Origin: an uncultured virus (IMG/VR IMGVR_UViG_3300021407_000014)
Taxonomy: Duplodnaviria; Heunggongvirae; Uroviricota; Caudoviricetes
Length of the DNA: 64,000 bases
Direction: 5' to 3' (one strand)
Virus record (IMG/VR): IMGVR_UViG_3300021407_000014
The notes below the pieces were generated by a model, which was given only the letters and a program-made list of their open reading frames with translations, searched no databases and was not told the origin of the DNA. Of this stretch, positions 1-21,997 are shown piece by piece (position 1 is the stretch's first letter; every line of letters begins with the position of its first letter). A program made the translations under genes and the position numbers.

Positions 1-992
1 GACGCTCCGGCCGTGGAGCTGTTGGGCAGGATGTCGGATGTAGCGTTGAAGATCGAGATGATGCGGCGGAAAGGATAGGCGACCGTCGCGATGCTTTCAA
101 AGAACGTGACCGCAGCGAGCGTTCCCTGGTCGGGAATCGCCAGCTCGGTTGTCCGAAGCTGCACGTAGGGAGTCATTCCGACCGCGAGGTCGAGCTCGCT
201 CCCGAACGCCGGGCAGTTCAGTGTAGTAAAGTTGGACTGGAAAACAGCGCTCGCAAATGCGTCGCCACCCGCGCCGAGATTGCCATTGACGAAGAGAGCG
301 ACCGCCGTGAGCGACGTGGGATCTCTTCCAAGCGACCATCCCACGTTAGGAGTGCCCGAGTTCAAGTACCCATGCACGGTCCCGTTGACATCGAAAAGGA
401 CCGCGCCGTCCTGCGCCTGCACCACGGTCGCTGCTTGGGAGCCCGTTCCAGGGCCCGCATGGACGTCTTGCGTGAGCTGCGTGATACCACTCGGTGCAGG
501 AGCGGCCCACGTCGCGACGCCGCCCGTGGTCGTGAGCACCTGCGTGTTGGCCCCCGGTTCGATGTTCGCGACCGAAAGCTGTCCCGTGACGGAACTCGCG
601 TTTGCGAGATTCACGGGCCCGTACGCCAGCGCGCCTCCCGATACCTGGAGCAGGTTACCGTTCGCGCCGACCGCGCTGAGGCCCGTGCCCCCGTTGGCGA
701 TCCCCAAGACCCCCGAGACCGAAGCGGGGTTCGCCAAGTTGAGCGCAGCGTATACGAGAGCCGCTGCACCAGAGACCTGAAGCAGGTTGCCCGGCGTGAG
801 GGCGCCGGCTGCGGGCACGGTCGCGCCGTTGACGCGCACGACGGTCGACGAGACCGCTCCGGAACCAGGGCCCGCAAGGACATCCCCGGTGAGCTGCGTG
901 ATCCCGCCGCCCCCGCCTCCCGACTTCGAGGCGCGTAAGAGCGCCTCGTCAGCGACCGAGCGCGTAATGGCCAAGTAAGTGCGCGGGCTCAT
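1..992 (-). CDS. Fibre/spike-like structural protein, runs off the left edge of the window
   Basis: Not in the ORF track (no stop in window). Manual translation from ATG at 992 (ATGA overlap with the stop of 989..2467): MSPRTYLAITRSVADEALLRASKSGGGGGGITQLTGDVLAGPGSG...GVLGIANGGTG...GITQLTQDVHAGPGTGSQAATVV. Shares its N-terminal motif with the two upstream genes. Confidence 0.7.
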   Translation of the reverse strand, partial: MSPRTYLAITRSVADEALLRASKSGGGGGGITQLTGDVLAGPGSGAVSSTVVRVNGATVPAAGALTPGNLLQVSGAAALVYAALNLANPASVSGVLGIANGGTGLSAVGANGNLLQVSGGALAYGPVNLANASSVTGQLSVANIEPGANTQVLTTTGGVATWAAPAPSGITQLTQDVHAGPGTGSQAATVVQAQDGAVLFDVNGTVHGYLNSGTPNVGWSLGRDPTSLTAVALFVNGNLGAGGDAFASAVFQSNFTTLNCPAFGSELDLAVGMTPYVQLRTTELAIPDQGTLAAVTFFESIATVAYPFRRIISIFNATSDILPNSSTAGA

Positions 993-2467
993 GCGGCCTT
1001 ACGTCTCACTATCCATGGTCGGTCACCCATCTCATCGAGCATGCACTTGAAGCAAAATGTGATGCCACCGTACTTTGGATTATAAAACTCGGTACCGAAG
1101 TCCGTCCCGCACGAAGGACAGTGTCCATTCCCAGATGTGCCTTTGAAGCCTTCTAGGTCCGCTGGTCCGAACGTCGTGTGTGTACCGCCACTGCCAAGCC
1201 ATGTGCCTGCGCCAGCTACGGAATACAATGTACCTCCTCCGACCGGATTCGATCCTGGTGTCACTGATGCGTTGGTAACTCCAATCACTCCCGTTCCTCC
1301 CCCGAATGTCGCTACATTTGATCCGAGGAGTACAATCCCGTTAGAGTTGCCATATAGAATGGCATTGGCATCGCCCTGAAAAAGCGCAATGGCCGCAGAT
1401 GGTGGAGTGTTGAAGTATGTGTACGTCGATCCGTCAGTGATGATTGCAGCCTCTGCATTCAGTGTCGACGAATTGAGCCACAGGTTGTGCTGTCCCAACG
1501 CATCGAGACCAATGCGTCCGATCTGCGTTCCGGCACGAGACACGACTAGTCCTGCCTCTGTGCCAGTACCCGAAGGAAGGCCGAGCGCGACGAACACGTT
1601 TCCTGGTGTTCCGTTTACATTCGCGCCCGCACCAGGTTCCAGCTTCACGTCTCCGCCGACGAGATTGACGGTCGCGGTCGCAAAGGCTGACTGTCCAACT
1701 ATCTCCAATGGAATCGTAGCGACATCCGCCGTCTGCGGATCGATGAGGACCCGAGACGATAGTGAAGTCACGCCGAAGTGAATCGCCGGATTCGATGGGT
1801 CCGGCGGTTGTGTCTGAATGTCGAAATAAATCGAAGCCGAAGCTGCCGCTCCATCTCCCATGTAAATGACCAGGGGGGTCAAGTACATCATCAGATAATC
1901 GTCTTGCGTAAGTAAACCTATCGCTCCCAATGGGGGGGCGTTCAAATACGTGTACGGGGGGCCACTTACCGGAGTTGGGTTTGTGATCAGCGCGGCATAG
2001 ATATGGGTGGTACCCAGCATCCCTTTGCCTAGCCAGAGATCGGTCTGCCCAATGTCGTCTACGCCGATAATTGCAAGCGGGTCAGGCCCTCGATGCACTT
2101 GAAACGAGGCTTCCACACCAGTGCCGGACGGAGCTGCCAGTTGAACGATTGCACTCCCGTTTGTAGCGTTTGCGTCTGTACTAGTTTGCGGACGCCAGGT
2201 TGAATTGGTGGCTGTTGCGGCCGTGGTGGGCGCTTGCGTCAAGAGCATTACCGATGAAGCGGACCAGGTCATCGTTCCGCCAGAACCAAACAGGTACTCG
2301 CCATTTCTGGCTGCCACAACCGTAGCTGGTTGGCTTCCTACTCCGGGACCGGCTAGCACGTCGCCGGTAAGCTGATTGATCCCCTCACCTCCCTCAGCCT
2401 GACGAGCGCGTAGGAGCGCCTCGTCGGCGATGCGACGTGTCTCGGTAAGGGTGAAGTGGGGGCTCAT
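989..2467 (-). CDS. Fibre/spike-like protein with C-terminal CxxC...CxxC
   Basis: 492 aa; N-terminal ADEALLRARQAEG-GINQLTGDVLAGPG motif; Gly/Thr beta-rich body with an internal duplication; ends HCPSCG...FCFKC. Confidence 0.6.
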   Translation of the reverse strand: MSPHFTLTETRRIADEALLRARQAEGGEGINQLTGDVLAGPGVGSQPATVVAARNGEYLFGSGGTMTWSASSVMLLTQAPTTAATATNSTWRPQTSTDANATNGSAIVQLAAPSGTGVEASFQVHRGPDPLAIIGVDDIGQTDLWLGKGMLGTTHIYAALITNPTPVSGPPYTYLNAPPLGAIGLLTQDDYLMMYLTPLVIYMGDGAAASASIYFDIQTQPPDPSNPAIHFGVTSLSSRVLIDPQTADVATIPLEIVGQSAFATATVNLVGGDVKLEPGAGANVNGTPGNVFVALGLPSGTGTEAGLVVSRAGTQIGRIGLDALGQHNLWLNSSTLNAEAAIITDGSTYTYFNTPPSAAIALFQGDANAILYGNSNGIVLLGSNVATFGGGTGVIGVTNASVTPGSNPVGGGTLYSVAGAGTWLGSGGTHTTFGPADLEGFKGTSGNGHCPSCGTDFGTEFYNPKYGGITFCFKCMLDEMGDRPWIVRRKAA

Positions 2468-2470
2468 GAG

Positions 2471-2995
2471 CTAGTAGACCGCGACTTTGCGCGCGACTCC
2501 GTTGACGGTCACCGAGACGTACTGCGCCGGGGTCGCGGGGAGCGCAGCGGCCCCTCCCGCCGCCGGAGCGACCGTTGACTGCGTGACGCCCTCGATGTCG
2601 AGCACGGGCCCTTGCAGCACGAGACCTGTCGAGTTCACGGGGTCTCCCACGAGAACCTGATTCAGCGCGTTCGTCGTGAGCACGCCGATGTCTGCTGTGT
2701 TGCCGGCGTTTCGAGCTGCAACGATCATCGAGTTGTTGGCGACGTTGAGCTGCGCGCTCGTAGCCACGGGATTCACCGATGTCTGCATCGAGATTTTCGA
2801 TCGAACCGGAAGAACTCCGGCAGCGCCGGACGCAGCCACCACCGTTGCCGCCTGGCTTCCTGCCCCCGGTCCCGCGAGCACGTCGCCCGTGAGCTGCGTG
2901 ATGCCATCGGCTCCCTCGGCCTGCCTGGAGCGCAGAAGAGCTTCGTCCGCGAGAACCTTGATCTGTGCGTTGGCGTTGTGTGCGTTCCTACTCAT
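2471..2995 (-). CDS. Short fibre/spike paralogue
   Basis: 174 aa; ADEALLRSRQAEGADGITQLTGDVLAGPGAGSQAATVV; GGAGA RBS upstream. Confidence 0.65.
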   Translation of the reverse strand: MSRNAHNANAQIKVLADEALLRSRQAEGADGITQLTGDVLAGPGAGSQAATVVAASGAAGVLPVRSKISMQTSVNPVATSAQLNVANNSMIVAARNAGNTADIGVLTTNALNQVLVGDPVNSTGLVLQGPVLDIEGVTQSTVAPAAGGAAALPATPAQYVSVTVNGVARKVAVY

Positions 2996-3006
2996 GACTT
3001 CTCCCT

Positions 3007-3507
3007 TTAGTGTCCTGGTGAGACGCCATGCATGATGGCGTAGATGATGATGCCCGTGAGTACAGCCGCGATGATATGGCTCAGGATCTTGGGTCCGAAC
3101 TCCGCGAGGATACCCTTGGGCTTGCTCTTCTCTTCCTCGAGCTTTTCCTTGAGCCGAGCGCTTTCTCGCTCCTGAAGCTTGAGTTCCATCTCGGCCTTGA
3201 GCTTCTCGATGTCCCAGCTTCCCGAATCCGTGGTCGGGAAGAAACGTTCCTGCTTCTGCTCGACGATAGTGACCCGTGCCTTGAGGCCTCGAATCTCGTC
3301 ATGGACGAATGACTTCAGGCCCGAGATTTCGCGCACGATCGTATCGGTCATCTGCTCGAAGCGCTTCTCGAGCGCAGGCCGACGTCGTCGATCGTCCTCT
3401 TGGGTCTCGAGGTACTCCTCGAGCTTCCGATCCAGTTCTGCTCGCGTGAGGCGGGGAGGGGGAGGAGATGAGGCCATCGGAAATTCCCAGGAGAGCGCAG
3501 CAGCCAT
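3007..3507 (-). CDS. Coiled-coil protein with C-terminal TM helix
   Basis: Start re-called at 3507 (TAATG overlap with upstream stop); charged helical body followed by ILSHIIAAVLTGIIIYAIM. Confidence 0.6.
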   Translation of the reverse strand: MAAALSWEFPMASSPPPPRLTRAELDRKLEEYLETQEDDRRRRPALEKRFEQMTDTIVREISGLKSFVHDEIRGLKARVTIVEQKQERFFPTTDSGSWDIEKLKAEMELKLQERESARLKEKLEEEKSKPKGILAEFGPKILSHIIAAVLTGIIIYAIMHGVSPGH

Positions 3508-5276: not shown

Positions 5277-5286
5277 GATTGGCCTC

Positions 5287-5757
5287 TTATCTCCTGATGA
5301 CATGGGCGAGGCCGTAGCCCGCCGCGACACTGATGCCCAGAACTGCAAACGCCATGGCCCATCCTTGCCAGTTCACGCTGGAACTCGAGCTTGTGCTCGT
5401 CTGGCCAAAGCCTTGGACAGCGAAATCTTTCTGCGCCCTCGTAAGCCCCACGCCCTGGCAAGAGCCGCAGTAGCCGCGCTGTGCGAAGATTTCCGCCTGC
5501 GGGATCGCATAGTCCGGCATCCCCGGCTCTTGCAGAGGGATCTGGGCATGCGGAAGACCGCCTCCCATGTGTCCCGTCATCGGCAGGACCACCGGTCCCA
5601 CGTACGTCTCGGGGAAGTAGATGGGCCCACCCGCGGCGTCATAGTCCGTGTAGGGCTTTTGATCCGTGAAGACCGCGCCCATTTCTTGGTACTCGGAGCA
5701 GCAGGGCAAGCCCTCTTCGCAGTTGCCGCAGCAGTCTGTTCCAGAGCCTGAGCTCAT
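5287..5757 (-). CDS. Cys-containing small membrane protein
   Basis: Start re-called at MSSGSGTDCCGNC (ATGA overlap); C-terminal TM. Confidence 0.55.
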   Translation of the reverse strand: MSSGSGTDCCGNCEEGLPCCSEYQEMGAVFTDQKPYTDYDAAGGPIYFPETYVGPVVLPMTGHMGGGLPHAQIPLQEPGMPDYAIPQAEIFAQRGYCGSCQGVGLTRAQKDFAVQGFGQTSTSSSSSVNWQGWAMAFAVLGISVAAGYGLAHVIRR

Positions 5758-6905
5758 GACGTCCGACCTCCTTTGCCACAAGCTTCGTAGTCGCTCGTGT
5801 CGTCTGCGGGACGCTCGAGCGAGGGATCGTTCGTCCGCGTGCCCTGACGCACGATCCGGTCCGCGTCGCTGGGGCGCCGGTACGTCTTCTCTTTCTCGCC
5901 GACCCAATCCTCCATCTCGAAGATGAGCGAACCGGCGATGCGAATGTACGTCGAGTTCGGGAACGTCTGCACGAACGAGTCTTCGCGCGTGACACCCAGC
6001 GTCGTACTGAAAGGCGAGATCGTCGCCGGGGGCGGCTGAAGTCGCGTCGAGGGGTTAGTCTGCTGGACGCTCGCGTAGAACGCGATATTGCAGGGACCTT
6101 CGATCAGAGCATCGCACGACGAAGGAATGTCCCACTCGCTCGTGCGAAGATCGTTCATACGTCCCAGTTCTGGCGAGAGAATGTTGCCCGGGAAGTCGCC
6201 ACCCCACGGGGGCGTAATGACTCCGGTACCCTCGTCGATGGTCTCGAAGAGCTGCGCGGGCGTCGTGCTCCACCGGAACTTCACGGGAGTCACGACGGTC
6301 GGCGACTGCGTGAAGTAGCCGTCCTGCACGTTGCCGATGATGGTCGGATCGACGATGCGCCGGATACCCCAGAGCACGTTTCCGTCCGTGAACTTCCAGA
6401 ACGCCGAGCTTACAGGCGTCTCGAGCGGGTAGGTCGCGCCGCTCAGGAGCATCACGGTGCTCCCCGGATGGAGCGCGCCCGTTCCGCCCGCGGCGCCCGT
6501 GAGGGACGTCGGAGTGATCCCAGCGAACGTGACGGTCTGCGGACCGTTCGCGCTCACGATGATGGCCGTTCCCCCTCCGGCAGGGAATCCCGTGGTCGAC
6601 ACGACATCGATGGTCGCCGCCGGCAGGTTTGCCGTGTCGGTGACCTGAGTGGTCGGACCCGAGGGGAGGTTCGAGCCGATGGTAAGAAGCTGGCGGAAGC
6701 CGATCAGCCTGGCGCGCTGATGGACGTTGAACTGCTTCTGGCAGAGCATGTACATCTGCCGAAGCCGAGGACTCGTGCTCGGATGAGTCCCGTTGGGCCC
6801 GATGAACAGGCCGATGTCGTTCGCCGTGCCAATCGGATCCGAACCAACGAGCTGTAGGTTCGGGTTGTATCCGACAGTGACGACTTCAATTCGACGACCA
6901 CGCAA
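5754..6905 (-). CDS. Putative virion structural protein (beta-rich)
   Basis: 383 aa; contains IDVVSTTGFPAGGG..TVTFAGIT segment typical of phage structural inserts; lies in the same operon. Confidence 0.5.
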   Translation of the reverse strand: MRGRRIEVVTVGYNPNLQLVGSDPIGTANDIGLFIGPNGTHPSTSPRLRQMYMLCQKQFNVHQRARLIGFRQLLTIGSNLPSGPTTQVTDTANLPAATIDVVSTTGFPAGGGTAIIVSANGPQTVTFAGITPTSLTGAAGGTGALHPGSTVMLLSGATYPLETPVSSAFWKFTDGNVLWGIRRIVDPTIIGNVQDGYFTQSPTVVTPVKFRWSTTPAQLFETIDEGTGVITPPWGGDFPGNILSPELGRMNDLRTSEWDIPSSCDALIEGPCNIAFYASVQQTNPSTRLQPPPATISPFSTTLGVTREDSFVQTFPNSTYIRIAGSLIFEMEDWVGEKEKTYRRPSDADRIVRQGTRTNDPSLERPADDTSDYEACGKGGRTS

Positions 6906-6926: not shown

Positions 6927-7637
6927 TTAGGGACACTCCACGGCTCGAGGCAGCCAGAAGCCCATCTCGCGGAGCTTGCGCGCCGCAGTGTCCACGGAGA
7001 TTTCATCGACCGTGTGGTCCAGGAACTGCCAACCGTTGAAGGTGAGCACTACGTTGTAGGGAGGTCCGTTCTCTTCGCCGAGGCCCGAAACGATTCCGGC
7101 CACGAGCTCGAACTCGACCTCGATGTTCTGCTGCTTGAAGAGCGGCCAGCCGCGCTGCCAGCGCGACGCGAGTATGTTGACGAAGTTGTTGAGCGGCGTG
7201 AACTGGGGCGAGACCAGGTACCTCGGTCCGCTGTGCACCGTAAGCCGGACGCCGATGCCCGGGTTCTGGCGAAGATACGCCATGAACTCCGAGACGAGAA
7301 TCTGTCCCTGGAAGACGTTGGGGAGCGAAATGTCGAACGTGATGTTGTCGATCCAGGTTCTTTGGGCGATGGTCGTATCGAGCCCTGCCTGGATGGGAAT
7401 CTGATTGAGCGCGAAGCTCGAGAAGCTGCCGGATGCGTTGATGGAGATGGGGATGCGCGGCACGCCCATCACGAGCCCGTAGGCCGCGATGGGATCGAGC
7501 ATCGCGATCTCTTCGATCCACTGGGCCTTCGGCTCCATGCCGAACCCGCGAATCTTCTCGCCTTCACCCGGTTCTCTGCCGAGACCGCGCGGGTACTCCT
7601 TCACGGACATCTCGGAGAAGTCTTTCAGGGTCGGCAT
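6927..7637 (-). CDS. Putative minor capsid/structural protein
   Basis: 236 aa with alternating hydrophobic beta-strand pattern; directly downstream of the candidate capsid gene. Confidence 0.4.
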   Translation of the reverse strand: MPTLKDFSEMSVKEYPRGLGREPGEGEKIRGFGMEPKAQWIEEIAMLDPIAAYGLVMGVPRIPISINASGSFSSFALNQIPIQAGLDTTIAQRTWIDNITFDISLPNVFQGQILVSEFMAYLRQNPGIGVRLTVHSGPRYLVSPQFTPLNNFVNILASRWQRGWPLFKQQNIEVEFELVAGIVSGLGEENGPPYNVVLTFNGWQFLDHTVDEISVDTAARKLREMGFWLPRAVECP

Positions 7638-7751: not shown

Positions 7752-9065
7752 TCAGCCGGCGAAGCTGGTTGCGTTGTAGGTCTGCGGAAGCGCCGCGAGA
7801 CCCGCCGGGATCAGGTTGGACTTGATGTACTGGAGCCAGGGGCCCCAGACCTCGAAGCCCTTGATCAGGATGGCGAGCTGGAGCGCGCCACCCTTGTAGA
7901 GGACGCGGTCCGTCTGCACCTGCTGGGACGCGATGACCGGCGTGGCGTCGAGCGTGAGCTCGTCGAACGTGGTCCCCGCGACCGGCGTGACGGTCGTGCC
8001 GCTCGTGGTCGGTCCGATCGGCATGAGGGTGTGGGTCGTCCCGTGTCCGTTGTCGTTGTTCGACAGGAACTGCTGCATGAGCGCCTGATGGTAGGCGTCC
8101 TGGACGATCAGGATCATCCCGATCGGGATGCCCTTCTCGAGAAGGACCGGCTTCGGGAGCTTCCGGAACGGATGCGCCATTCCGGTCATGCCCTGCGCTC
8201 GGAGACCGCCCCACGTGACGTCGATGAGGTCGTACGCGCGGGTCGGGTGGAAGACGCCGACGTTGGCGCCGCCCGGCCCGAGCGTGGTCACGGAGCCCAC
8301 TCGCTGCGCGTTGATGGAGAGGAACGCACCCGGATCACCGATGCCCGGATCCTGGTACTTGATGTTCGCCCGGTCGACGAAGCGCTGGAACGCCTCCTGG
8401 CTGGAACCCGCAGCGACCGCCTCGGCGTAGGAGCCGAAGTAGGCCACGTCCGCGCACAGCTCTTTGATGAGCTGGTAGCGCTGCTGCATGATCCACTGGA
8501 ACTGGTACGCGTTCATGAGGTGCCAGAGCGCGTTCTGCGCATCGACACCCCACTCGAGGATCGCCGGGGTCATCGTGGCGGCCGGCGTGGCTCCCGCGAG
8601 AGACGGACCAAGCGCCCCGTTGAGGACGTCGTTGTGCGTGAACGCGTCCGGAGAGACCGGAACCGCGTCCGGCGCGGGCGCCGGGGTCACGTAGTTGCCG
8701 ATCTGCGATCCCTGCTGCGGCTCGGCAAACCCGTGGATGCCGAAGCCGATGGCCAGCATGTCGACCTGGAGAAGGCCGTTGATGATGAAGCTCGAGTCGA
8801 CGTCCGTGACCCCGGGGACAGCCTTGGGGTTCTGGAGGATGTCGATCTCGTCACCGAACGTGCCCGGGATCGCGCTCTGCGGAACCGGTAGATCGATCGT
8901 CCAGGTGACGTACTCGATGACCGGGACCTGCGTGAATCCGCAGTTGATGAGAGCCTGCGCGGCCGTGGTCTGGTTCTGACCGACGCCCACGATCGCCTCG
9001 GGACCCATCCCGAGTCCGATCATCCGGGCGAGGCCCTTGTCTACGCTCTTCGACTTGGAACTCAT
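7752..9065 (-). CDS. Candidate major capsid protein (fold unverified)
   Basis: 437 aa, soluble, beta-rich; strong AAGGAG RBS; followed by an intergenic gap; next to the Arg-rich core-like gene. Function inferred from context only. Confidence 0.4.
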   Translation of the reverse strand: MSSKSKSVDKGLARMIGLGMGPEAIVGVGQNQTTAAQALINCGFTQVPVIEYVTWTIDLPVPQSAIPGTFGDEIDILQNPKAVPGVTDVDSSFIINGLLQVDMLAIGFGIHGFAEPQQGSQIGNYVTPAPAPDAVPVSPDAFTHNDVLNGALGPSLAGATPAATMTPAILEWGVDAQNALWHLMNAYQFQWIMQQRYQLIKELCADVAYFGSYAEAVAAGSSQEAFQRFVDRANIKYQDPGIGDPGAFLSINAQRVGSVTTLGPGGANVGVFHPTRAYDLIDVTWGGLRAQGMTGMAHPFRKLPKPVLLEKGIPIGMILIVQDAYHQALMQQFLSNNDNGHGTTHTLMPIGPTTSGTTVTPVAGTTFDELTLDATPVIASQQVQTDRVLYKGGALQLAILIKGFEVWGPWLQYIKSNLIPAGLAALPQTYNATSFAG

Positions 9066-11405: not shown

Positions 11406-11950
11406 GCGTACCCGTCGACGGCGAAAAGATTTGCCCTCGATGCCGGGAGACGAGGCCGGCGGCCGACTTCATGAAAGCCGGCGCTCGCTGCCTCGAGTGC
11501 TCGTCGTGTCGAAAGAAGCAGGTCGACGCGGAATTTCTAGAGTGGCAGCGGGAGTACGAAAAGAAGGGAGCCTACATGAGGCCCCAAGACCCGGACGGAC
11601 GCATGCCAAGTCGGTGGCTGCCACCAAAACGACGCAAATGTCGAAAGTGTGGGGAGATCAAGCCATTCGCCGAGTACGTCTCCAAGAGCGGGCGGTCGTA
11701 TCTGCGAGAGTGCAAGGAACGAGACTTTTCGGCCTCGCTAGACCGGCTCGACCCGTCTCTCGGATACGTCAAGGGCAACGTGAACATCATCTCCTGGCGC
11801 GCGAACCGCCTCAAGAGCGACGCCACTCCCGACGAACTCGAGGCTGTCGCTGCTTGGATGCGAAAAACTCAACAGAAAGCGCAGCAAGAGCGGCAAGATC
11901 GGCCACACATAGCCCCTATCGTCAACGAGACATCCCCCTCCCAACGATAG
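11402..11950 (+). CDS. Zn-binding HNH-like endonuclease
   Basis: CxxC pairs and SLDRLDPSLGYVKGNVNIISWRANRLKSD. Confidence 0.65.
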   Translation: MSVPVDGEKICPRCRETRPAADFMKAGARCLECSSCRKKQVDAEFLEWQREYEKKGAYMRPQDPDGRMPSRWLPPKRRKCRKCGEIKPFAEYVSKSGRSYLRECKERDFSASLDRLDPSLGYVKGNVNIISWRANRLKSDATPDELEAVAAWMRKTQQKAQQERQDRPHIAPIVNETSPSQR

Positions 11951-12346
11951 CTTATAGAAGCGCCCGGCTCGCGAAAGCGTGAGGGGCCGCCCCTTGAACG
12001 GATGGAAGAAGCCGCCCGGAGCACGCTTGCCTCGGCGCTTGTAGAAAATCTTCACGACCTTCGCGACTTGCTCCCATCCCTCACGAGGGATCTCCGGGAT
12101 GATCGCGAGCTTCATCGGATGATTGCTTCCCAAGTATCTGCGGTTCGACAGGTTCGCATCGACCGGGCGATTCGTCTTCTTCCATGGTCCGTAGAAGACG
12201 GTGCACTTGGGCAAGTCTCGTCCCGACGGATCATGGAACTGTCCGTACGCCGCCGGGAGAGAGATTACCTTGCCTTCCGTCGTCTCGAACTTCACGCGGT
12301 TCGCTTCGACGCGGATCGACGGCGACGGGAGCTTGCCCTGGCTCAT
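11738..12346 (-). CDS. Basic hypothetical protein; 3' end overlaps the HNH gene antisense
   Basis: Follows 12350..12709 closely; protein-like up to DDRGYVWP. Confidence 0.5.
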   Translation of the reverse strand: MSQGKLPSPSIRVEANRVKFETTEGKVISLPAAYGQFHDPSGRDLPKCTVFYGPWKKTNRPVDANLSNRRYLGSNHPMKLAIIPEIPREGWEQVAKVVKIFYKRRGKRAPGGFFHPFKGRPLTLSRAGRFYKLSLGGGCLVDDRGYVWPILPLLLRFLLSFSHPSSDSLEFVGSGVALEAVRAPGDDVHVALDVSERRVEPV

Positions 12347-13038: not shown

Positions 13039-15339
13039 TTACTTGGCTCCGTGGTGCATGGCGCGAGAGAGACGCCTCTCCGCTATCCATTCCCAGACGA
13101 GAGGTCCTACCACGACGATCGAAGCGACCGCGACCGCGCCGACCGCGAGCCACGTGACGACGCTCGCGTCCAGAGGCTGAGGCTGAGGAATGGGGACCTG
13201 CGGACCCGCGTTGAGAGCGTCCTGGACCCCTTGTCCAAGGTCGCCAGCGGTCGTGTTCTGATCGTATCCGTATGGACCGACGTACCCGTCCATTCCGTTC
13301 GTCCCCGCCGGACCAAGAATGCTCGTATTGGGGTACTGCCCCGTGCTGCCTCCCCCCACCGTGTAGGGGTAATCGTACGCCTGTCCCATCCCGATCACGC
13401 GCTCGACTTCAGCGACGAGCTCATGTCCAAGTCCGACCGGGATGGGCGAGTACGCGTTCGTTCCTGCTCCCGCTTCCGGCGAAAACGCGTGCGCGCTCGG
13501 ATACTCCCCGAGTCCCATCGCATGGATCTCATCCAGCGTGACGGGGTAGGGCGGCCATTCGCCCTCTTGGAGCCCCACGGGCGCGTACGCCGCGCCATGC
13601 GACAAGGGAGAAAAAGCATGCGCGAACGGGAAGACTCCAAGGCCTTCGGGAAGTCCCTCCGGGACCGCGCCGACGCCGATGAAGTCGCCATGCTCGGGCT
13701 CTTTGCCCAGCGAGACCGGAAACCCGTCGGCGCCGCCCATCGTCAGCGAACCTGAAGTCGGGTCCATCCACCACTCCTTCGTCGCGGGATGATACTTGCC
13801 GACCGGCCAGTCCTTCGCGCTCGGGTCGACTCGCACCCAACCCTTGGCCGGATCGCGGAACGCGCAGATCACGTGCGTGGCCCGTTCGGTCCCGAACGCC
13901 TGCGCAATGAACCGGCAGTCGATGCCGAGGCTCATCAGGACCGCGCAGTACGCCACGATACGGTCGTCGCAGTTGCTCACGGTCACGTCGTGCTCGGGTA
14001 GGTACACGAAGTGATCGCTCGTCGCGATGTCCCAGCACATGCGGGTCCCGACGTTCTTGTCAATCTGCCGGACTTGCAGGCGCTTCACGCGCCAGCCGGG
14101 CTTCGGCGTACCGCGGACCGTGAGTCTCCAGATCGGGTTCTCACCGAGACCGCCGTGGTCGACGATGTACGAGTGGCCGCACGACTTGCCGAACATCCGG
14201 TGCAGCACGCGAGTCTGGACCATCAGCTCGTGAGACGTCGTCGTGAATGTGCGTCCGTCACCGGCTGTGTTCTTGCCGCTGTCGGCCATGATGCCTTCGA
14301 GTAGCTTCGCCGCGGGCGCTTCTTGAAGGTTGATCGAGAGCGCGTGCTTGAACTTCGCGCGCGGACCCATCTGCTGCATCCGAAGAGTCCACCCTCGGTC
14401 CTTCACCGAGATGTACTTCCGATGCCAGGTCGTTGGGATGTCCCAGCGCTCGCACAGCTCTTGGACTTTCCGCTTATTCTCTTCCTTGGGGCAACCGTCC
14501 TGGCCCGAGATTTCGAAGCTCGCGTTGTTGCTGCTCCAGCCGTCGGAGACGAAGAGGCCCTCAATCCAGGCCCGGTCCGGGTCCATCTCCCCCGTCCCGA
14601 AATCGATCTTGTCTGGCTGGATGAGCTCGTCCTTCTCGTTGAGGTCCGAGACCGGGACTCGAACGATCTCGAAGTTCTCGTCAGGGCACGAGCACCGGAC
14701 GTTGTCCGCCAGCCTGTGCTTGGTGCACCGACGCACGTAGGCCTTATGATCCCCCGTCAAGAGCATCGTCGAACCGTTGGTCATCGACACGGCGTCGACC
14801 TCGAGCTCGCCCTTGAACCACTTGTTTTCTACGGTCGTCCAGCCCTTGTAGCCCCAGATCCGGTCACCGATCCCGATGTCCTCGATCTTGACGAACTCGA
14901 AGTCATCGCGAAGAAGAAGCGTTCCCTGCGGGAAGCAGTCAGCCGCCGGGATGCAGAGCTTGCCGTCCTCGAGACAGAGGGTCGTCTTCGGCTTGACGAT
15001 CATCTCGGTGTTGATCGGGTCCTGCACGTAGACCGTGCGCTTGCGGATCGCATCGAGGATGGCCTGCGCCTGCGTGGACTCGTTCGTTGGATTGCCGGCC
15101 GCGAGAAGCGCGCGACCGCCCCAACCTCGCAGGAGCGCTACGGTCTTCGGGTCCTTCAGGTCTCCCGAGACAGCCTTGGCCATCTCCTGGAGAGAGAACT
15201 TCGTCCCCTCGACGCCGTCGGGGTGCACGCCCTTCCGCACAGGCGCGTCCCCGATGCCCGCAACGCGCTGCTGCTCGGCCGTGAGCGCGAAGCCCTTGCC
15301 GAGGCCCGTGTGATCAGCGCCGTTGGAGTCGTCTGCCAT
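13039..15339 (-). CDS. Transglutaminase-like (papain-fold) protein with intein and C-terminal TM
   Basis: Spliced sequence AAD-CDDRIVAYCAVLMSLGIDCRF...THV...WVRVDPS gives the Cys-His-Asp transglutaminase-core pattern. Confidence 0.8.
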   Translation of the reverse strand: MADDSNGADHTGLGKGFALTAEQQRVAGIGDAPVRKGVHPDGVEGTKFSLQEMAKAVSGDLKDPKTVALLRGWGGRALLAAGNPTNESTQAQAILDAIRKRTVYVQDPINTEMIVKPKTTLCLEDGKLCIPAADCFPQGTLLLRDDFEFVKIEDIGIGDRIWGYKGWTTVENKWFKGELEVDAVSMTNGSTMLLTGDHKAYVRRCTKHRLADNVRCSCPDENFEIVRVPVSDLNEKDELIQPDKIDFGTGEMDPDRAWIEGLFVSDGWSSNNASFEISGQDGCPKEENKRKVQELCERWDIPTTWHRKYISVKDRGWTLRMQQMGPRAKFKHALSINLQEAPAAKLLEGIMADSGKNTAGDGRTFTTTSHELMVQTRVLHRMFGKSCGHSYIVDHGGLGENPIWRLTVRGTPKPGWRVKRLQVRQIDKNVGTRMCWDIATSDHFVYLPEHDVTVSNCDDRIVAYCAVLMSLGIDCRFIAQAFGTERATHVICAFRDPAKGWVRVDPSAKDWPVGKYHPATKEWWMDPTSGSLTMGGADGFPVSLGKEPEHGDFIGVGAVPEGLPEGLGVFPFAHAFSPLSHGAAYAPVGLQEGEWPPYPVTLDEIHAMGLGEYPSAHAFSPEAGAGTNAYSPIPVGLGHELVAEVERVIGMGQAYDYPYTVGGGSTGQYPNTSILGPAGTNGMDGYVGPYGYDQNTTAGDLGQGVQDALNAGPQVPIPQPQPLDASVVTWLAVGAVAVASIVVVGPLVWEWIAERRLSRAMHHGAK
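13972..14937 (-). mobile_element. Intein (322 aa) with LAGLIDADG homing endonuclease
   Basis: Starts CFPQGT; block B LTGDHK; LAGLIDADG-like IEGLFVSDG and LEGIMADSG; block F CWDIATSDHF; ends VTVSN followed by +1 Cys. Confidence 0.9.
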
Positions 15340-16569: not shown

Positions 16570-16579
16570 GCTCGCGCTC

Positions 16580-17309: not shown

Positions 17310-18005
17310 TCAGTCGACAGCGTAGATCACGACGCCGCCTATCACAACCGCACCCAGGATGTAGAGCCACGTGTAGTCGGTTGCCGGGGCGACAGGAGCG
17401 ATGGGAGCGGGGAGGGCGGGGACGAGTGGGGCGTACGGAATGGCCGTCGCGTGTGGAACGCACACGTCGATGACAGCCGCAATCCAGTTGCCGTACCTTC
17501 TCCACGAGACCAGGTACGAAATTCCGTTGTACGTGAAGCTGAGCGGAGTCTGAAGCGGATAGGTGCTGCCCGGATTTGCGTTCGCAGGCAGCAACGAAAA
17601 ATTGAGCACGTACGCGCCGTAGATTGCCTGTAGCTGCTGCTGACTCAGACCTCCCTGGACATGAACCGGAGCTAAATTCAGCTTCTGCTTGACCGTGGGC
17701 GACGCGTACACAAGCCTCAGCGCGCTACCGGCCGGACAACCGGCCGGCCCAGTACCCTGAGCGTTCGTAGTGGGTTGGACCCCTGGCATATTCACAATCA
17801 CCGCAGCCGCTGCGGTTGCAGGGACCGGGCCACTTATTCCTTCTGAACTGATCGGCTGAATCCAGCCCCCCGGTGGGGTGGGAACATTGCCCGAACCGCC
17901 AGAAGAAGACTGTCCCAAGCCCCTCGGAATGGGAACGACCGTCATGCGAGCGCGCGCTAGCTCCGCACGATGCTCCGGGCTCAGGGATCCAAGACCCACT
18001 TCCAT
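17310..18005 (-). CDS. Membrane-anchored protein, paralogue of 16580..17272
   Basis: Same shared motifs; TAATG coupling to the upstream gene. Confidence 0.7.
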   Translation of the reverse strand: MEVGLGSLSPEHRAELARARMTVVPIPRGLGQSSSGGSGNVPTPPGGWIQPISSEGISGPVPATAAAAVIVNMPGVQPTTNAQGTGPAGCPAGSALRLVYASPTVKQKLNLAPVHVQGGLSQQQLQAIYGAYVLNFSLLPANANPGSTYPLQTPLSFTYNGISYLVSWRRYGNWIAAVIDVCVPHATAIPYAPLVPALPAPIAPVAPATDYTWLYILGAVVIGGVVIYAVD

Positions 18006-19348
18006 TAGAGTTTCCTTCCTAGGAGCTTGATCGTGTCGACGGGCGAAATCCGGTGCTTGTAGGAGTAGGCGGCGACTCCGCCCGCCCCCGCTGCGAGCGC
18101 GGCAAGAGCTATCTTAGCAGCAGTCGACATTCCTGAGGAGCTTGCCGCCTTGGGAGCGTTCGCGAGCTCGCGGTGCGCCATCGCGAGGTAGTCCTCGACG
18201 AGCATGCGGCACAGGTTGGGGACGTGACCGTTCTCGTCGTGCAGGATTTTCTGCTGGAGGATGATCTCCTGCGTGATGGACACCGTGTGAGCGCCGACGG
18301 CGAGCATGCCCAAGATGGTCGCCATCATCGACAGGCCAGCAAGGTTCATGAAGTACGTGAAGTTGTCGGACGCCTGCATCGTGTAAAGCCGCGTGTCCCA
18401 GTAGAGCGGATCGGGCTTTCTCGCGAGCGCAGCCTGCTGGATCTGATGACTCGAGAATCCAGGAAGTGGAGCCGTGTCGTTGCTCCAGAGCGCGAGCCGC
18501 TGCGAGTTGCCCTTGTCCGTCGCACCGAAGTACGTGTTCTGCTGGCAGTCTTGGATGTGATCGGGCTGCGCCCAGTACCAGAACACGGGTGTGCAGAGTG
18601 GCTGGGCTGTTTGCAGGAGAGTCTGCGCCGGGACCGAACCGCCGAGAATGTTCCGCGTCGACGGCGCCGTCGGGTCGCCGCCGTCGTAGTATGAGCTGAG
18701 AGCCGAGCCGTTGAGCGCCATCACCGTTGCGATGACGTCCGGCATTCCGTTCGAATCCGCACTCGGATTCATCGGCGCGTTCGTGTTGAACTTGATCTCG
18801 TCGATGAGCGTCCACTGAAGCGCCTTCTTGAGATCCTTGACTCGGTGAGTCGTGCTGGGCGGAAACCGGAAGGCGAGGTAGTCCGCGAACGTCCATCCCT
18901 GAGGCTGAGTCGTCTCGGCCCCGAGATGTCCCGTCTGCATGTCCCACTGGGCCACCGACTTGTAGAGCTGCTGATCCGCATTCGAAGGACACGCGGTCGC
19001 TCCCTGGTACCCTCCGCCTCCAAAGATCGCCTCGGCGAGCGAGGCGATGGCTGCGGCGATGGCGCCAGCGGCCGCTCCTATAGGTCCCCCCACCGAGCAG
19101 GCTGCTGCTGCTGCGCCTATTTGAGCCAGCGCCCGAACGATGGTCCCTACCTCACCCCCCGGCTGGAATCCCTGCGCGAACGTGATTCCCTGCGCGACAA
19201 GCGCAGTGACATCGCCGTTGCCGATGGCCGTCGATGTCGCTTGAAGGAGGTTTTCCCCGTGCTGAAGCTGCGCGTTCAGATTCCCCATGGGGGGAAGGGA
19301 CGTCGGCGATAGCTGGATCTGCCCGAGGCCGCGAACGAGCCGTCCCAT
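18005..19348 (-). CDS. Membrane-associated virion protein
   Basis: 447 aa; Ala/Gly-rich hydrophobic segment, C-terminal TM, N-terminal RGLGQ. Confidence 0.6.
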   Translation of the reverse strand: MGRLVRGLGQIQLSPTSLPPMGNLNAQLQHGENLLQATSTAIGNGDVTALVAQGITFAQGFQPGGEVGTIVRALAQIGAAAAACSVGGPIGAAAGAIAAAIASLAEAIFGGGGYQGATACPSNADQQLYKSVAQWDMQTGHLGAETTQPQGWTFADYLAFRFPPSTTHRVKDLKKALQWTLIDEIKFNTNAPMNPSADSNGMPDVIATVMALNGSALSSYYDGGDPTAPSTRNILGGSVPAQTLLQTAQPLCTPVFWYWAQPDHIQDCQQNTYFGATDKGNSQRLALWSNDTAPLPGFSSHQIQQAALARKPDPLYWDTRLYTMQASDNFTYFMNLAGLSMMATILGMLAVGAHTVSITQEIILQQKILHDENGHVPNLCRMLVEDYLAMAHRELANAPKAASSSGMSTAAKIALAALAAGAGGVAAYSYKHRISPVDTIKLLGRKL

Positions 19349-19381: not shown

Positions 19382-21004
19382 CTAGGTTTGCGGAATCGCG
19401 ACAGGAACGCGTCTTCGATCGAACGACGCTGGACGCGGGACAGGCTGCGCGGGCTGCCGAACGGGAGCCGGCGCGGGCACGGACTCGGGACCCTGACGGA
19501 CCTCGATGGGAGGCTGGCCCGAAGGAAGCTGTCCCTGTCCCGAGCGCATGGCATTCGCCGCAGCCGTCGCTGCGTTCGCAAGCGCGATGCGCTCCTGCAC
19601 GGCTCGAGACTGAGCTGCTTGCTGATCGGCCTGGAACTTCTGGACGCGGTCCACGACCGACTTGACGCCGTCGATGATTTTGGGCGCTGCGCCCATGAGC
19701 GTCGGCACCCACGCAAGCGCTCCGGTCTGGTCGTAGGCGACTTCGACTTCACCCACCATCGTCTTCGAGAGAGGACTCGCTGCTTCGGCGGCTGCCTCGG
19801 CGGCTTCGGCGGCTGCCTCGGCAGCGACCGGTCCCCCTTGCGGAACGAGGGTCTGCGCGATGTTCTGTAGCTGCTGGGCTGCTTCCATGAGACCGCGGAA
19901 GTCTTTCACGGTCCTCTGCATGCCCATGACCATGTCCAAGCTCGGCGGCACCGCAGCGACCGGCGCGACCTGCGCGACAGGCATCGCGTACGCAGGTTGG
20001 ACAGGCGCCGCGTACGACGCCGGCTGTCCCGCAGGCGCGACAGCTTGCACAGGAACGGGAGCGGGAGCCGGCGCTTGGAATGCCTGGGGCCTCATGTCTG
20101 GCACCATCCCCGTCGGGATCCTCGAGTAGCCCGGAGGGATCACACCATTCCAGCCGTCGGGAAGAGGAATGAAACCTGGAGGCGGCGCTGGCTTCTTGGC
20201 CTCCATGACCATCTCCCGCATGAAGTTCATCATCTCGCGGTCGCGCGCTTGCGTCTGCTCGAAGAACTGCCGCTGCATCTCGCTCACCTGCCCCATCGCG
20301 CCGAGCGCGGCAGACTGGTCTTGAGGCGCGGCCTGTTGGGGATGCACGTGCACGACCGGCGGCGACTGCGGAGCTTGAGGCACGGGAGCAGGGGGCGGAG
20401 GAGGCGGGAACGCCGGATAGCCCGGGTAGGGGCCAGGGTTGCCCGGATAGGAACTCATGCCCATGCCCACGGGACTGGGAACCGGCTCGCTCTTGTCCGG
20501 CATGTAGATGCTTCCGCGGCCATATTCCCAGCCCGCCGGAGCTCGAAACCGGACTTCATAGGTCGCGTGACCTCTTCGTCCGTGGCACGACTCCACGTAC
20601 TTGTAGAGCTCGGTTGCGCTCGAGACGGCAGACATGTTCAGAGGAGGGAACTGCTCCATCGGCTCGGGCTTGATGCGCGTGACGTAGATGGTGATGGAAG
20701 ACAGGTGCGACGGATACGATTCCTTGATCGCCGGGAAAAGCTCGAGCGGGTCTTTGAGTCCCCACTGGACGTTCTTCTCTCCTGTAGCTTTTTTCTTGTA
20801 CGTCTTCGCAAGAGCCTGATTGCGACTCGCGCTCTCCGGAGTGAGAGCCCCGATGAGCTGAGCTTGCTCGATGGAGACTTCTCCCTCGGTCTGTACGGAC
20901 CCGTCGGGGTTACGCGGTACGGCCTCAGGAACGAGCGCGTCGGTTGCGTCCGCGACCGTCACGGGCTCGTCGGAGAGTTCTTCTTTGTGCTGCTTCCTGG
21001 CCAT
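19382..21004 (-). CDS. Pro/Gln/Ala-rich hypothetical protein
   Basis: 540 aa; AGGAG RBS. Confidence 0.6.
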   Translation of the reverse strand: MARKQHKEELSDEPVTVADATDALVPEAVPRNPDGSVQTEGEVSIEQAQLIGALTPESASRNQALAKTYKKKATGEKNVQWGLKDPLELFPAIKESYPSHLSSITIYVTRIKPEPMEQFPPLNMSAVSSATELYKYVESCHGRRGHATYEVRFRAPAGWEYGRGSIYMPDKSEPVPSPVGMGMSSYPGNPGPYPGYPAFPPPPPPAPVPQAPQSPPVVHVHPQQAAPQDQSAALGAMGQVSEMQRQFFEQTQARDREMMNFMREMVMEAKKPAPPPGFIPLPDGWNGVIPPGYSRIPTGMVPDMRPQAFQAPAPAPVPVQAVAPAGQPASYAAPVQPAYAMPVAQVAPVAAVPPSLDMVMGMQRTVKDFRGLMEAAQQLQNIAQTLVPQGGPVAAEAAAEAAEAAAEAASPLSKTMVGEVEVAYDQTGALAWVPTLMGAAPKIIDGVKSVVDRVQKFQADQQAAQSRAVQERIALANAATAAANAMRSGQGQLPSGQPPIEVRQGPESVPAPAPVRQPAQPVPRPASFDRRRVPVAIPQT

Positions 21005-21021
21005 GAGAATCTCCTACGCGT

Positions 21022-21345
21022 TCACGTGATAGCGACCGGAATCTCTTCCACCGGGCTCTTGATCGCTTGCCCGATGGTCTGCGTGTAGAGGCCTCGAAAC
21101 GGAGAGGCCTGATCCGTCCCCGGAGGGAAGTTCGTCTGAAACTGCGCGCCCGCGATGTCGAAGACGATCGTGCGCTCGGCTTCCAGCGCACCCACGGCCA
21201 CGGTCGTGTCGCTGGTGAGAGACGCCCCGAACACGTCCAGAGGAGTGATGCTCAGAGGGATGGCCGTGAGAGCCGCCACGAGCGCAGCTTGCGTAATGGG
21301 GCCTTGGATCGAAACGACGTACTTGAGCGTGGCGGTCGTGGACAT
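21022..21345 (-). CDS. Hypothetical protein
   Basis: Start re-called at MSTTATLKY after an AGGAGG RBS. Confidence 0.55.
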   Translation of the reverse strand: MSTTATLKYVVSIQGPITQAALVAALTAIPLSITPLDVFGASLTSDTTVAVGALEAERTIVFDIAGAQFQTNFPPGTDQASPFRGLYTQTIGQAIKSPVEEIPVAIT

Positions 21346-21373
21346 GGGTAGGTCCTCCTGACGAGAGGATAGC

Positions 21374-21997
21374 TTAGGACGCGCTCGTGCCTGGAACCTG
21401 AGGCGCGGGAACGGGAGCTTGCGGCTGCGCTTGTGCAGTCCCGTTCGTGAGCGCGGGAGAAGCGGGCAGGTCAAGCACGGGGGGCTCGGTCTCGTCTCCC
21501 TCGTCTTCGCCCGCGTCGGTCGCGTCTGCGAGAAGGTCTTCGTACTCGTCGCGCGAGCAGAGCCACGTGACGTTCTTGATGAGGTCCGGGGCGAGTTCGA
21601 TGATGACCTCGCGGCCCCTCTTGGAATTCTCGGAGTTCGGCACGTGCCTACCGAAGACGCGAATCGCGCCGTCTTCTTGACGAGCAAACGCTTCGATGCG
21701 CACGGCCTGCGTTCCCTCGGTTCCCGGAATTCCAACGATCCGATTGTTCGCGATGGTCGTCTGGAGGACCTTGTCCGTCCCGGGAAGCACCTGTCCGATG
21801 GCCCACATCTCGTCGATGGGCTCGTGCATGACCTGCACGATGCCGGTGTCTGAGTTGGGAGGAAGCCTCGTCTCGCTCACCATGCCGGTGCGCACCAGGA
21901 TCGCCGTGATGGGCGGCATGGGAGCCGGCTCGTACTCGGTGTTCTCGTCGTCTGTCTCGTTGGCGCCCGTTCCGAGCGTAGTCTGCTCTCCAGCCAT
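21374..21997 (-). CDS. Acidic hypothetical protein
   Basis: 207 aa; GAGAGG RBS. Confidence 0.55.
   Translation of the reverse strand: MAGEQTTLGTGANETDDENTEYEPAPMPPITAILVRTGMVSETRLPPNSDTGIVQVMHEPIDEMWAIGQVLPGTDKVLQTTIANNRIVGIPGTEGTQAVRIEAFARQEDGAIRVFGRHVPNSENSKRGREVIIELAPDLIKNVTWLCSRDEYEDLLADATDAGEDEGDETEPPVLDLPASPALTNGTAQAQPQAPVPAPQVPGTSAS

Follow-up and report, generated by a model that had tools for sequence, protein, structure and literature searches.

Introduction

The tectiviruses, among them PRD1 and PR772, are tailless icosahedral viruses of bacteria that have vertex spikes and, inside the shell, a membrane with many small membrane proteins; they combine linear genomes of about 15–18 kb with a protein-primed polymerase and a packaging ATPase of the FtsK/HerA type. 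Viruses of the P23-77/HHIV-2 type have genomes of 16–31 kb and a conserved packaging ATPase beside the capsid genes. The known tailless jelly-roll viruses of bacteria have genomes of only about 10–20 kb, and most of them use a packaging ATPase. Here we describe an uncultured virus, IMG/VR record IMGVR_UViG_3300021407_000014, of which bases 1–64000 (the window) were analysed together with L002, the last 11.8 kb of the record (position 3119 of L002 is position 66119 of the record). We interpret it, with a probability of roughly 60%, as a temperate bacterial virus whose particle is tailless, membrane-containing and motor-less, with a jelly-roll shell around an Arg-rich DNA core; the membrane and the lack of a tail are read from gene content.

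The closest known design is that of SPV1 (Portogloboviridae). SPV1 has a circular double-stranded DNA (dsDNA) genome and an icosahedral shell of single jelly-roll proteins, with VP4 as hexamers and VP10 as pentons; numerous subcapsomer and membrane proteins accompany its inner lipid layer, a nucleoprotein core (VP1) is present, and there is no ATPase among its nine function-assigned open reading frames (ORFs) (PMC8459092). It is a non-lytic virus of a hyperthermophilic archaeal (Saccharolobus) host, with a genome of 20.2 kb and no replication genes (PMC8459092). Circular dsDNA, indicated here by a 126-bp end overlap and an ORF that reads through the junction, and the lack of a recognizable packaging ATPase are both found in the present genome. 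The core and the lipid layer may have counterparts at the level of genes, namely an Arg-rich protein in 5 of 5 complete genomes and transmembrane-like segments in 21 of 38 late proteins. The present virus differs from SPV1 in its size (74.65 kb, with relatives of 54–128 kb), in the occurrence of relatives in bins of bacterial metagenome-assembled genomes (MAGs) and in having full phage-type modules for replication, lysis and integration. At 437 amino acids (aa), its candidate capsid protein is longer than the 180-residue SPV1 chain, and the likeness is one of predicted structure and design.

Adenoviruses possess a cysteine protease (adenain) that cuts at small Gly-containing motifs, and basic core proteins. 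As an analogy only, the present virus shows a Gly-x-Gly motif near the N-terminus of the capsid candidate (64 of 68 relatives), a conserved Cys-His-Asp enzyme and an Arg-rich core protein; however, the enzyme is transglutaminase-like and not adenain-like, and the motif is widespread among late proteins only in this genome. PRD1 P3 of the Tectiviridae gives the best structural match to the 437-aa model. In contrast to tectiviruses, the present genome has 74.65 kb, is circular or permuted, encodes an integrase, DnaB, SNF2 and Sak4, lacks an FtsK/HerA ATPase (0 of 5 complete genomes) and has no sequence match in 50,697 phage records. With P23-77, HHIV-2, HCIV-1 and SH1, which have adjacent capsid genes, no tail and an internal membrane and are in some cases temperate with circular genomes, it would share these features of design; it differs in having no recognizable packaging ATPase and in having three conserved proteins, not two, without detectable mutual similarity. 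Actinobacteria are known as hosts of tectiviruses such as WheeHeim and Forthebois (PMC6950372). The genome cannot be filed under either Portogloboviridae or Tectiviridae.

Genome completeness and the late gene block

The record is 74,785 bp long, and its completeness according to CheckV is 100%. Its last 126 bases (74660–74785; 11660–11785 of L002) are identical to bases 7–132, and a fibre-like ORF that is cut by the left end of the window resumes in frame at the right end of the record. The overlap and the reading of this ORF through the junction indicate a circle or a terminally redundant molecule with nothing missing; thus, the genome is complete at about 74.65 kb and circular or circularly permuted. 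Upstream of the 126-bp overlap there is an apparent one-base difference in a C run, which may explain the label "linear" in IMG/VR.

An earlier note on this DNA, made from the letters of the sequence, had described about 22 kb of co-oriented genes in positions 1–21997 on an element of at least 64 kb. The size estimate was true as a lower bound, the exact figure being the 74,785 bp given above. The co-orientation is confirmed, since the minus strand carries every credible gene in 1–23057. Positions 1–21997 form the central part of a larger late block that runs from 23057 to 1 and across the record ends to about 63241, with about 38 genes in about 34.5 kb on one strand. Pfam named 3 of the 30 ORFs in 1–23.7 kb (weak LysM, Transglut_core and RadC). 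PHROGs also named three, including a weak endolysin-like match and a marginal match of the 766-aa ORF to an anaerobic ribonucleotide-reductase family (E 0.0094); no capsid, portal, terminase or tail family was among the named ones. An NCBIfam scan of 15 late or unknown proteins returned RadC only. Neither a tRNA nor an Rfam family was detected, and promoter- and terminator-like sites were not clearly in excess of shuffled sequence. The genes on which the interpretation centres are the following:

5754..6905, minus strand: 383-aa core protein (tblastn 36 of 38 loci, 4 of 4 complete relatives), about 295–300 aa in most relatives
6927..7637, minus strand: 236-aa core protein (tblastn 37 of 38 loci, 4 of 4 complete relatives), another candidate for a jelly-roll protein of the shell or the vertices
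7752..9065, minus strand: 437-aa candidate major capsid protein, modelled as a jelly-roll-type beta-sandwich, with the N-terminal motif R-x-[IVF]-G-[LMF]-G-x-x-P
9167..11050, minus strand: 627-aa predicted DNA-condensing core protein, protamine-like in its N-terminal 300 aa, with a C-terminal half that is hydrophobic and rich in Ala and Gly
13039..15339, minus strand: 766-aa transglutaminase-like (papain-fold) enzyme with a C-terminal transmembrane anchor (Transglut_core), core gene
22038..23057, minus strand: RadC-like JAB (JAMM) protein (Pfam RadC, E 1.2e-32), core gene and first gene of the conserved block

The candidate capsid protein and its neighbours

The earlier note had singled out the 437-aa ORF as a beta-rich candidate capsid protein and had asked for a decision between jelly roll and HK97. 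The structure prediction agrees with the candidate. From an alignment of 68 sequences, AlphaFold2 (AF2) gave a confident model with a predicted local distance difference test (pLDDT) score of 87.7, a predicted template modelling (pTM) score of 0.86, about 20 strands and four helices; a model from the single sequence (pLDDT 31.8) was discarded in its favour. The protein models as a jelly-roll-type beta-sandwich and not as an HK97 fold. Its nearest solved structures are capsid proteins of PRD1, iridovirus, HHIV-2, SPV1 and P23-77, and no HK97-fold major capsid protein occurs in any of its structural match lists. The scores of the structural matches were:

PRD1 P3 (160 residues aligned, root-mean-square deviation 5.4): 5.3
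HHIV-2: 5.0
SPV1: 4.9
Orf virus D13-like scaffold: 4.9
EhV-201 capsid: 4.9
HCIV-1: 4.7
P23-77 VP16: 4.7
P23-77 VP17: 4.5
PBCV-1: 4.4

The weak lists returned by Foldseek also consist mostly of jelly-roll capsid proteins (papillomavirus L1, CRESS and hepevirus capsids, mavirus penton, STIV and Wip1 proteins). Single-domain jelly-roll targets cover ranges of about 46–407 of the model, which is a hint, from the ranges only, at one sandwich formed from both chain ends with an inserted beta-domain and not at two tandem barrels. A profile search of PDB sequences with the family gave no match. The ORF has the highest GC content at third codon positions (GC3, 0.90) of the chosen ORF set and also the highest coding score per residue.

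The 437-aa family comprises 160 relatives in a 90%-clustered collection, and when its profile was run exhaustively against 1.84 billion cluster representatives, 249 of them matched at E ≤ 0.001; all are unnamed, and none of 30 among the most distant relatives was assigned to a Pfam family. Of 68 relatives, 64 have the motif R-x-[IVF]-G-[LMF]-G-x-x-P in their first 75 residues (median position 17); in 200 shuffles of the N-termini, the number of sequences with it averaged 3.3 and never exceeded 8. The motif sits in the low-confidence N-terminal tail of the AF2 model and is doubled in some relatives.

For the 236-aa protein, a model of the ESM Atlas (pLDDT 0.65) offers a lead: it matches a cluster of Sputnik/V20 capsid proteins with a TM-score of 0.45 across 179 residues. 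Its closest Pfam-bearing feature clusters, again only a lead, are P2_N/P2_C (score 0.76), which we take to be the PM2 capsid protein domains. The profile of its family met chance-level matches only among PDB sequences. The 383-aa family has 316 relatives and no Pfam family.

Head, tail and packaging genes

Six-frame searches, which are independent of ORF calling, were run on this genome and on four complete relatives, G001–G004 (two records with direct terminal repeats, one IMG/VR provirus and one linear record); control genomes were positive. The large-terminase families Terminase_6N, TerL_ATPase and Terminase_6C, the HK97 capsid family Phage_capsid, the single Pfam portal family Phage_portal and the packaging ATPase families FtsK_SpoIIIE (FtsK/HerA) and Pox_A32 (A32-type) were each found in 0 of 5 complete genomes, and there was no PHROG portal. 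Scans of 30, 61, 123 and 20 ORFs with PHROG and Pfam profiles likewise returned no HK97 capsid, portal or terminase. PHROGs named 14 of the 123 ORFs of at least 120 aa in 22.9–64 kb and, in L002, a few of the 20 ORFs, and no capsid, portal, terminase, tube, sheath or tape-measure family was among them. A Pfam scan of the 89 genes of G004 contained no capsid, portal, terminase or packaging-ATPase family. A family-agnostic scan of the whole genome for P-loops (Walker A) found only the SNF2 helicase, an AAA+ ATPase and the Sak4-like protein, none of which is kept in all four complete relatives; the AAA+ ATPase is present in 0 of 4.

Thus, the lack of recognizable HK97 capsid, portal, terminase and tail genes, which the earlier note had reported, extends to the whole genome and, for capsid, portal and terminase, to four complete relatives. 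Its suggestion that a packaging ATPase may lie beyond the window did not hold, as neither an FtsK/HerA ATPase nor a terminase turned up in the flanking sequence of the complete record and the P-loop scan offered no candidate. The AAA+ ATPase was considered as the packaging motor of the lineage and was ruled out because it is absent from all four relatives and has its closest relatives in tailed Mycobacterium phages.

Conservation across the lineage

Among 38 IMG/VR loci on contigs of 4–128 kb, tblastn found the 437-aa and the 236-aa protein in 37 each, the 383-aa protein in 36, the transglutaminase-like enzyme in 32, the RadC-like protein in 21, a 540-aa protein in 16 and a 202-aa basic protein in 8. 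The order of the 437-, 236- and 383-aa genes is fixed across the loci. These three proteins, the transglutaminase-like enzyme and the RadC-like protein are the only ones matched in all four complete relatives, among which the replication genes are patchy. Conservation among the three neighbours is highest for the 437-aa protein, with 42–49% identity to distant relatives compared with 25–40% for the 383-aa protein.

A basic core-like protein had also been predicted, and the 627-aa ORF answers to it: its first 300 residues contain 89 Arg and 24 Lys (113 basic residues; isoelectric point (pI) 12). In 5 of 5 complete genomes, the gene directly upstream of the capsid candidate encodes a protein of 496–711 aa with at least 46 basic residues per 100; these Arg/Lys-rich proteins are not linked by BLAST because their sequence is too simple. 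The core of the lineage consists of the Arg-rich protein, the three adjacent unnamed proteins of 437, 236 and 383 aa, the transglutaminase-like Cys-His-Asp enzyme and the RadC-like JAB protein.

The relatives are discrete records of 54–128 kb, two of them with direct terminal repeats. None of the three adjacent core proteins had a tblastn match in 50,697 GenBank phage records, the 437-aa protein had none in 72,556 plasmid records, and a literature search found, within the literature covered, no description of such a lineage. These results fit the idea, raised before, that the lineage may be undescribed.

The complete relative G004 (L059–L063, 85.6 kb) encodes a rhomboid protease and a family A DNA polymerase that is apparently split in two ORFs, one of them fused to UDG, as well as VapE, Thy1, dCMP deaminase, Dam methylase, a glycosyltransferase and methyltransferases. 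The lineage is highly mosaic in its modules for replication and modification.

Interpretation and alternative explanations

In the proposed particle, the 437-aa protein, probably together with the 236- and 383-aa proteins, would build the shell and the vertices. Single-pass transmembrane proteins would populate the internal virion membrane, including a LysM-like wall-binding protein and the membrane-anchored cysteine enzyme, and six fibres with one common N-terminal adaptor motif would attach at the vertices. The DNA would be condensed on the protamine-like protein and enclosed during assembly instead of being pumped in by a motor, as in SPV1. Integration would proceed via the tyrosine integrase and lysis via glycosidase and SLT enzymes. 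The earlier note had read the locus as a tailless, membrane-containing virus on a large genome with an integrase, and this interpretation is supported: neither HK97, portal or terminase genes nor a non-capsid fold of the 437-aa candidate turned up.

Several observations weigh against a tailless, motor-less jelly-roll virus. The particle design is predicted from gene content, and the only indication of a host comes from MAG bins. Foldseek searches of the 437-aa model against PDB and BFVD gave nothing at E ≤ 0.001 and template modelling scores of about 0.1. In an ESM feature search the 437-aa protein lies near a cluster that carries SU10_MCP, a tailed-phage capsid family, in 37% of its members, with 150 of 256 features in common, which is a lead. 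The structural link of the 383-aa protein is limited to a weak profile match with enterovirus VP1 (E 0.14), and hhalign detected no mutual similarity and thus no paralogy among the 437-, 236- and 383-aa families. A motor that is invisible by sequence is not thereby proven absent. Finally, tail-associated labels fall on a fibre (phrog_4577 "tail protein", E 2e-6), on the SLT enzyme (phrog_196 "baseplate hub") and, as Phage_lysozyme2, on a gene of G004.

It is rather unlikely, in our estimate, that the virus belongs to the PRD1/adenovirus lineage, with the 437-aa protein as a double jelly-roll trimer, the 236-aa protein as penton and a packaging ATPase that is too divergent or has been replaced, for example by the AAA+ ATPase. 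The P3 proteins of PRD1 and PR772 are the top structural matches, with 158–177 residues aligned across nearly the whole model, 437 aa is a typical size for a double jelly-roll capsid protein, and the P2_N/P2_C lead for the 236-aa protein points in the same direction. However, the range of about 46–407 spanned by single-domain jelly rolls suggests one sandwich with an insert, as far as ranges can tell, both FtsK_SpoIIIE and Pox_A32 are missing from all five genomes, and no P-loop gene is kept across the relatives, the AAA+ ATPase being found in none of the four. The adjacency and strict conservation of the 236- and 383-aa genes would also suit a shell built from these two as single jelly-roll proteins in the manner of P23-77 and HHIV-2, with the 437-aa protein as a vertex, turret or receptor-binding protein. 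This arrangement appears quite improbable, as the 437-aa protein is better conserved than its 383-aa neighbour and ranks first in GC3 and coding score per residue, unlike fast-evolving receptor binders, and six separate fibre genes are present.

If the virus were a strongly diverged tailed phage, with HK97 capsid, portal, terminase and tail proteins beyond the reach of all sequence profiles, this would account for the replication, recombination and lysis genes, which are typical of tailed actinophages, for the AAA+ ATPase with 46% identity to Catdawg and Firecracker, for the tail-associated labels on fibre and lysozyme genes and for the SU10_MCP lead. We nevertheless regard it as very improbable. 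A large terminase is normally detectable, yet three terminase families as well as the portal and HK97 capsid families were absent from all five genomes, and there is no conserved P-loop gene. Moreover, the best-conserved and best-expressed late protein models as a jelly-roll-type sandwich, and the late block encodes about 18 transmembrane proteins, a number that is unusual for tailed phages. We give hardly any credence to the view that the block is no virion module but belongs to an integrative element with phage-type replication genes, in which it would serve the cell envelope, adhesion or transfer. The many membrane-anchored, Gly/Pro-rich proteins, the LysM, SLT and transglutaminase-like enzymes, the fibre- or adhesin-like paralogues, the integrase and the absence of packaging genes would fit such a module, but no conjugation ATPase or coupling protein was found (FtsK 0 of 5; P-loop scan), the plasmid records gave no match, and the relatives are discrete records of 54–128 kb, two of which have direct terminal repeats. 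The jelly-roll capsid-like fold and the protamine-like protein fit a particle.

The tailless, motor-less jelly-roll virus may be pictured further, although we offer this extension tentatively and consider it possible rather than probable. It would represent a widespread lineage of 54–128 kb, perhaps new at very high taxonomic rank, that packages circular dsDNA without a motor, condensing it on a protamine-like protein that is enclosed by a protein-rich membrane and by a jelly-roll shell, and in which a cysteine or JAB protease cuts a Gly-x-Gly motif off the capsid protein. Such a virus would combine an SPV1-like architecture with an adenovirus-like maturation and with replication modules borrowed from tailed phages. 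For a widespread group with genomes of 54–128 kb, no detectable motor and a protamine-like core, three consequences would follow: the genome-size limit of the tailless jelly-roll virion design would be raised several-fold, SPV1 would have a bacterial counterpart, and a jelly-roll virion module would be combinable with tailed-phage replication, recombination and lysis modules. ESM Atlas clusters of proteins of this lineage are labelled Uroviricota. Automatic classifiers file such genomes as tailed phages, and the genomes are therefore invisible in virome censuses.

Candidate peptidases, the intein and the Gly-x-Gly motif

The 766-aa enzyme matches Transglut_core with E 9.8e-6 and 26.2 bits against a cut-off of 23, and the domain is also present in G004. 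Cys457, His489 and Asp505 are invariant in an alignment of 24 orthologues; in sequence terms, the enzyme carries the Cys-His-Asp triad of transglutaminase-like cysteine enzymes, and we consider it a candidate maturation protease or wall-degrading enzyme. A GDF[VI]G[MV][SG] motif is conserved in its C-terminal region. The gene contains the following in-frame insertion:

13972..14937, minus strand: 322-aa intein (CFPQ...VSN, then +1 Cys) with a LAGLIDADG-like middle, directly before the catalytic Cys of the enzyme

The insertion occurs in 5 of the 24 orthologues at one site, between the invariant Asp134 and the catalytic Cys457, and is absent from 19; one of the five (L027) is a mini form. It begins with Cys and ends with Ser-Asn ahead of a +1 Cys, and its profile matches are weak (LAGLIDADG_3, E 0.0022, below cut-off; Prp8 inteins, E 0.035–0.07 over residues 1–65). 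Judged by these features, the insertion is an intein. An intein in this position singles out the gene of the transglutaminase-like enzyme as conserved and probably essential. No intein is known to have been reported in the transglutaminase-like enzyme family, although no search was aimed at this. New here are the intein exactly at the catalytic Cys of the enzyme and the N-terminal [IVF]-G-[LMF]-G motif of the capsid-protein family. A further intein, suspected in DnaB from the length of that protein, was dismissed on reading the sequence.

The RadC-like protein has an intact HNHPSG...SEAD motif, its NCBIfam match being below cut-off. There are thus two conserved candidate peptidases, the Cys-His-Asp enzyme and the RadC-like JAB protein.

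G-[LF]-G is found 22 times in a set of 22 late proteins from this genome, compared with 9.5 ± 3.0 times in shuffled sequences (maximum 19 in 500), a count from which some ORFs would drop out if a later start codon were used. The occurrences are mostly "RGLGQ" near the N-termini of about ten late proteins besides the capsid candidate. Outside 1–22 kb, an N-terminal RGLGQ or RGLGT is found in the SLT transglycosylase and two small proteins (49901-50533, 54317-54757 and L002 3119-3493, all on the minus strand), which may be virion-targeted or processed. In the relatives G001–G004 only the capsid candidate carries the G-x-G motif consistently, and closer relatives have it also at the N-terminus of the enzyme. 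The motif is a possible processing or targeting signal, and [IVF]-G-[LMF]-G may mark a propeptide that is removed by the transglutaminase-like or the JAB enzyme.

Membrane-anchored, fibre-like and other late proteins

Transmembrane-like segments were called by Kyte-Doolittle hydropathy in a 19-residue window at a value of at least 1.6. Twelve proteins inside 1–21997 have such a segment, mostly as a single C-terminal anchor, where about ten had been predicted. In the whole late block it is 21 of 38 proteins, about three of which are probably false (RadC, the core of the enzyme and 69920-70735). The remaining late features in the window are:

21022-21432, minus strand: protein with a transmembrane-like segment (hydropathy scan)
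19382..21004, minus strand: 540-aa Pro/Ala/Gln-rich protein without a Pfam, PHROG or NCBIfam match (tblastn 3 of 4 complete relatives)
18005..19348, minus strand: 447-aa protein with transmembrane-like segments and an N-terminal RGLGQ (hydropathy scan, motif)
17310-18005, minus strand: C-terminally membrane-anchored protein with repeated GLG/GFG motifs, paralogue of 16580-17272
16580-17272, minus strand: C-terminally membrane-anchored protein with repeated GLG/GFG motifs, paralogue of 17310-18005
16003-16620 (16003-16569 in the hydropathy scan), minus strand: C-terminally membrane-anchored protein
12726-13034, minus strand: small N-terminally membrane-anchored protein (hydropathy scan)
12350-12733, minus strand: small N-terminally membrane-anchored protein (hydropathy scan)
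11738..12346, minus strand: 202-aa basic protein (pI 10) of no known family (tblastn 8 of 38 loci)
3007-3507, 3507-4805, 4827-5303 and 5287-5757, minus strand: four membrane-anchored proteins (hydropathy scan)
3507-4805, minus strand: the second of these four, a 432-aa LysM-like, Gly-rich protein (LysM, E 0.0056; phrog_380 endolysin, E 1e-4)
2471-2995, minus strand: fibre-like paralogue (repeat families D1–D3, N-terminal motif)
989-2467, minus strand: fibre-like paralogue (repeat families D1–D3, N-terminal motif)
1-992, continuing across the record ends, minus strand: fibre-like paralogue (repeat families D1–D3, N-terminal motif)

The 540-aa protein is possibly a scaffold or subcapsomer protein. 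The 432-aa LysM-like protein is predicted to bind the cell wall, and G004 carries a LysM/PG_binding protein at the matching position. The fibre-like paralogues described earlier are confirmed by a common N-terminal [IVL]ADEALLR, which the three fibres of the window share with three fibre genes past its end, six in total. One fibre was searched against phages and gave a single collagen-repeat match only.

Between 66119 and 68947 of the record (minus strand; L002 3119-5947) lie seven small proteins, each with a transmembrane helix and a tail of low complexity. The N-terminus of four or five of them is basic and Arg-rich (RRRxRRNP-like), with R-x-N-P about ten residues before the helix. Such small basic-then-transmembrane proteins were dismissed as a feature of the lineage, since a crude test counted four or five here versus 0–1 in each of four relatives. 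A 667-aa Gly/Thr/Pro-rich ORF (record 63652-65655, minus strand; L002 652-2655) lies at the end of the late block. Its coding score is very high; Pfam, PHROG, NCBIfam and PDB gave no match to it and the four complete relatives no homologue, and it is possibly a strain-specific spike or host-recognition protein. The late block also contains a dual-specificity phosphatase (DSPc, E 1.1e-8; L002 2682-3437, minus strand) and a DUF192 protein (E 7.4e-25; L002 5998-6360, minus strand).

Replication, integration, lysis and host

The rest of the genome encodes an SNF2 helicase, a Sak4-like protein, a PD-(D/E)XK nuclease, DnaB, several HNH endonucleases, a sigma factor, the AAA+ ATPase and an integrase. 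Lysis-type genes are an Rv2525c-like glycosidase and an SLT transglycosylase. An integrase and tailed-phage-type replication genes had been named before, and both were found again. The integrase is:

60012..60956, minus strand: tyrosine integrase (Pfam Phage_integrase, E 1.4e-5, below cut-off; phrog_216, E 1.2e-13)

From the tyrosine integrase we infer a temperate lifestyle; one relative is classed as a provirus by IMG/VR. Relatives on short contigs in bacterial MAG bins give the host signal: Acidimicrobiales (two, with 63% and 59% identity), Binatia and Polyangiaceae. A scan of MAG and genome contigs found five MAG fragments only and no isolate prophage. The accessory genes resemble those of actinophages.

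The 523-aa AAA+ ATPase (54726-57476, minus strand) matches phrog_8638 with E 3.5e-158 and has 46% identity to proteins of the Mycobacterium phages Catdawg, Firecracker and Ryadel; two adjoining ORFs match the phage families of unknown function phrog_11021 and phrog_11784. The region looks like a cassette shared with tailed actinophages and is absent from the four complete relatives. Four HNH endonuclease genes (27153-27641, 35737-36582, 44846-45559 and 47224-47721), two of which are phrog_374 paralogues (E 9e-61 and 5e-54), make up, together with the intein, an unusual load of homing-type elements. A full-length sigma-70 family sigma factor (43439-44320, minus strand; phrog_351, E 5e-54) may drive late transcription. 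A small DnaJ-type zinc-finger protein, below the Pfam cut-off, is encoded at 25259-25660 on the minus strand.

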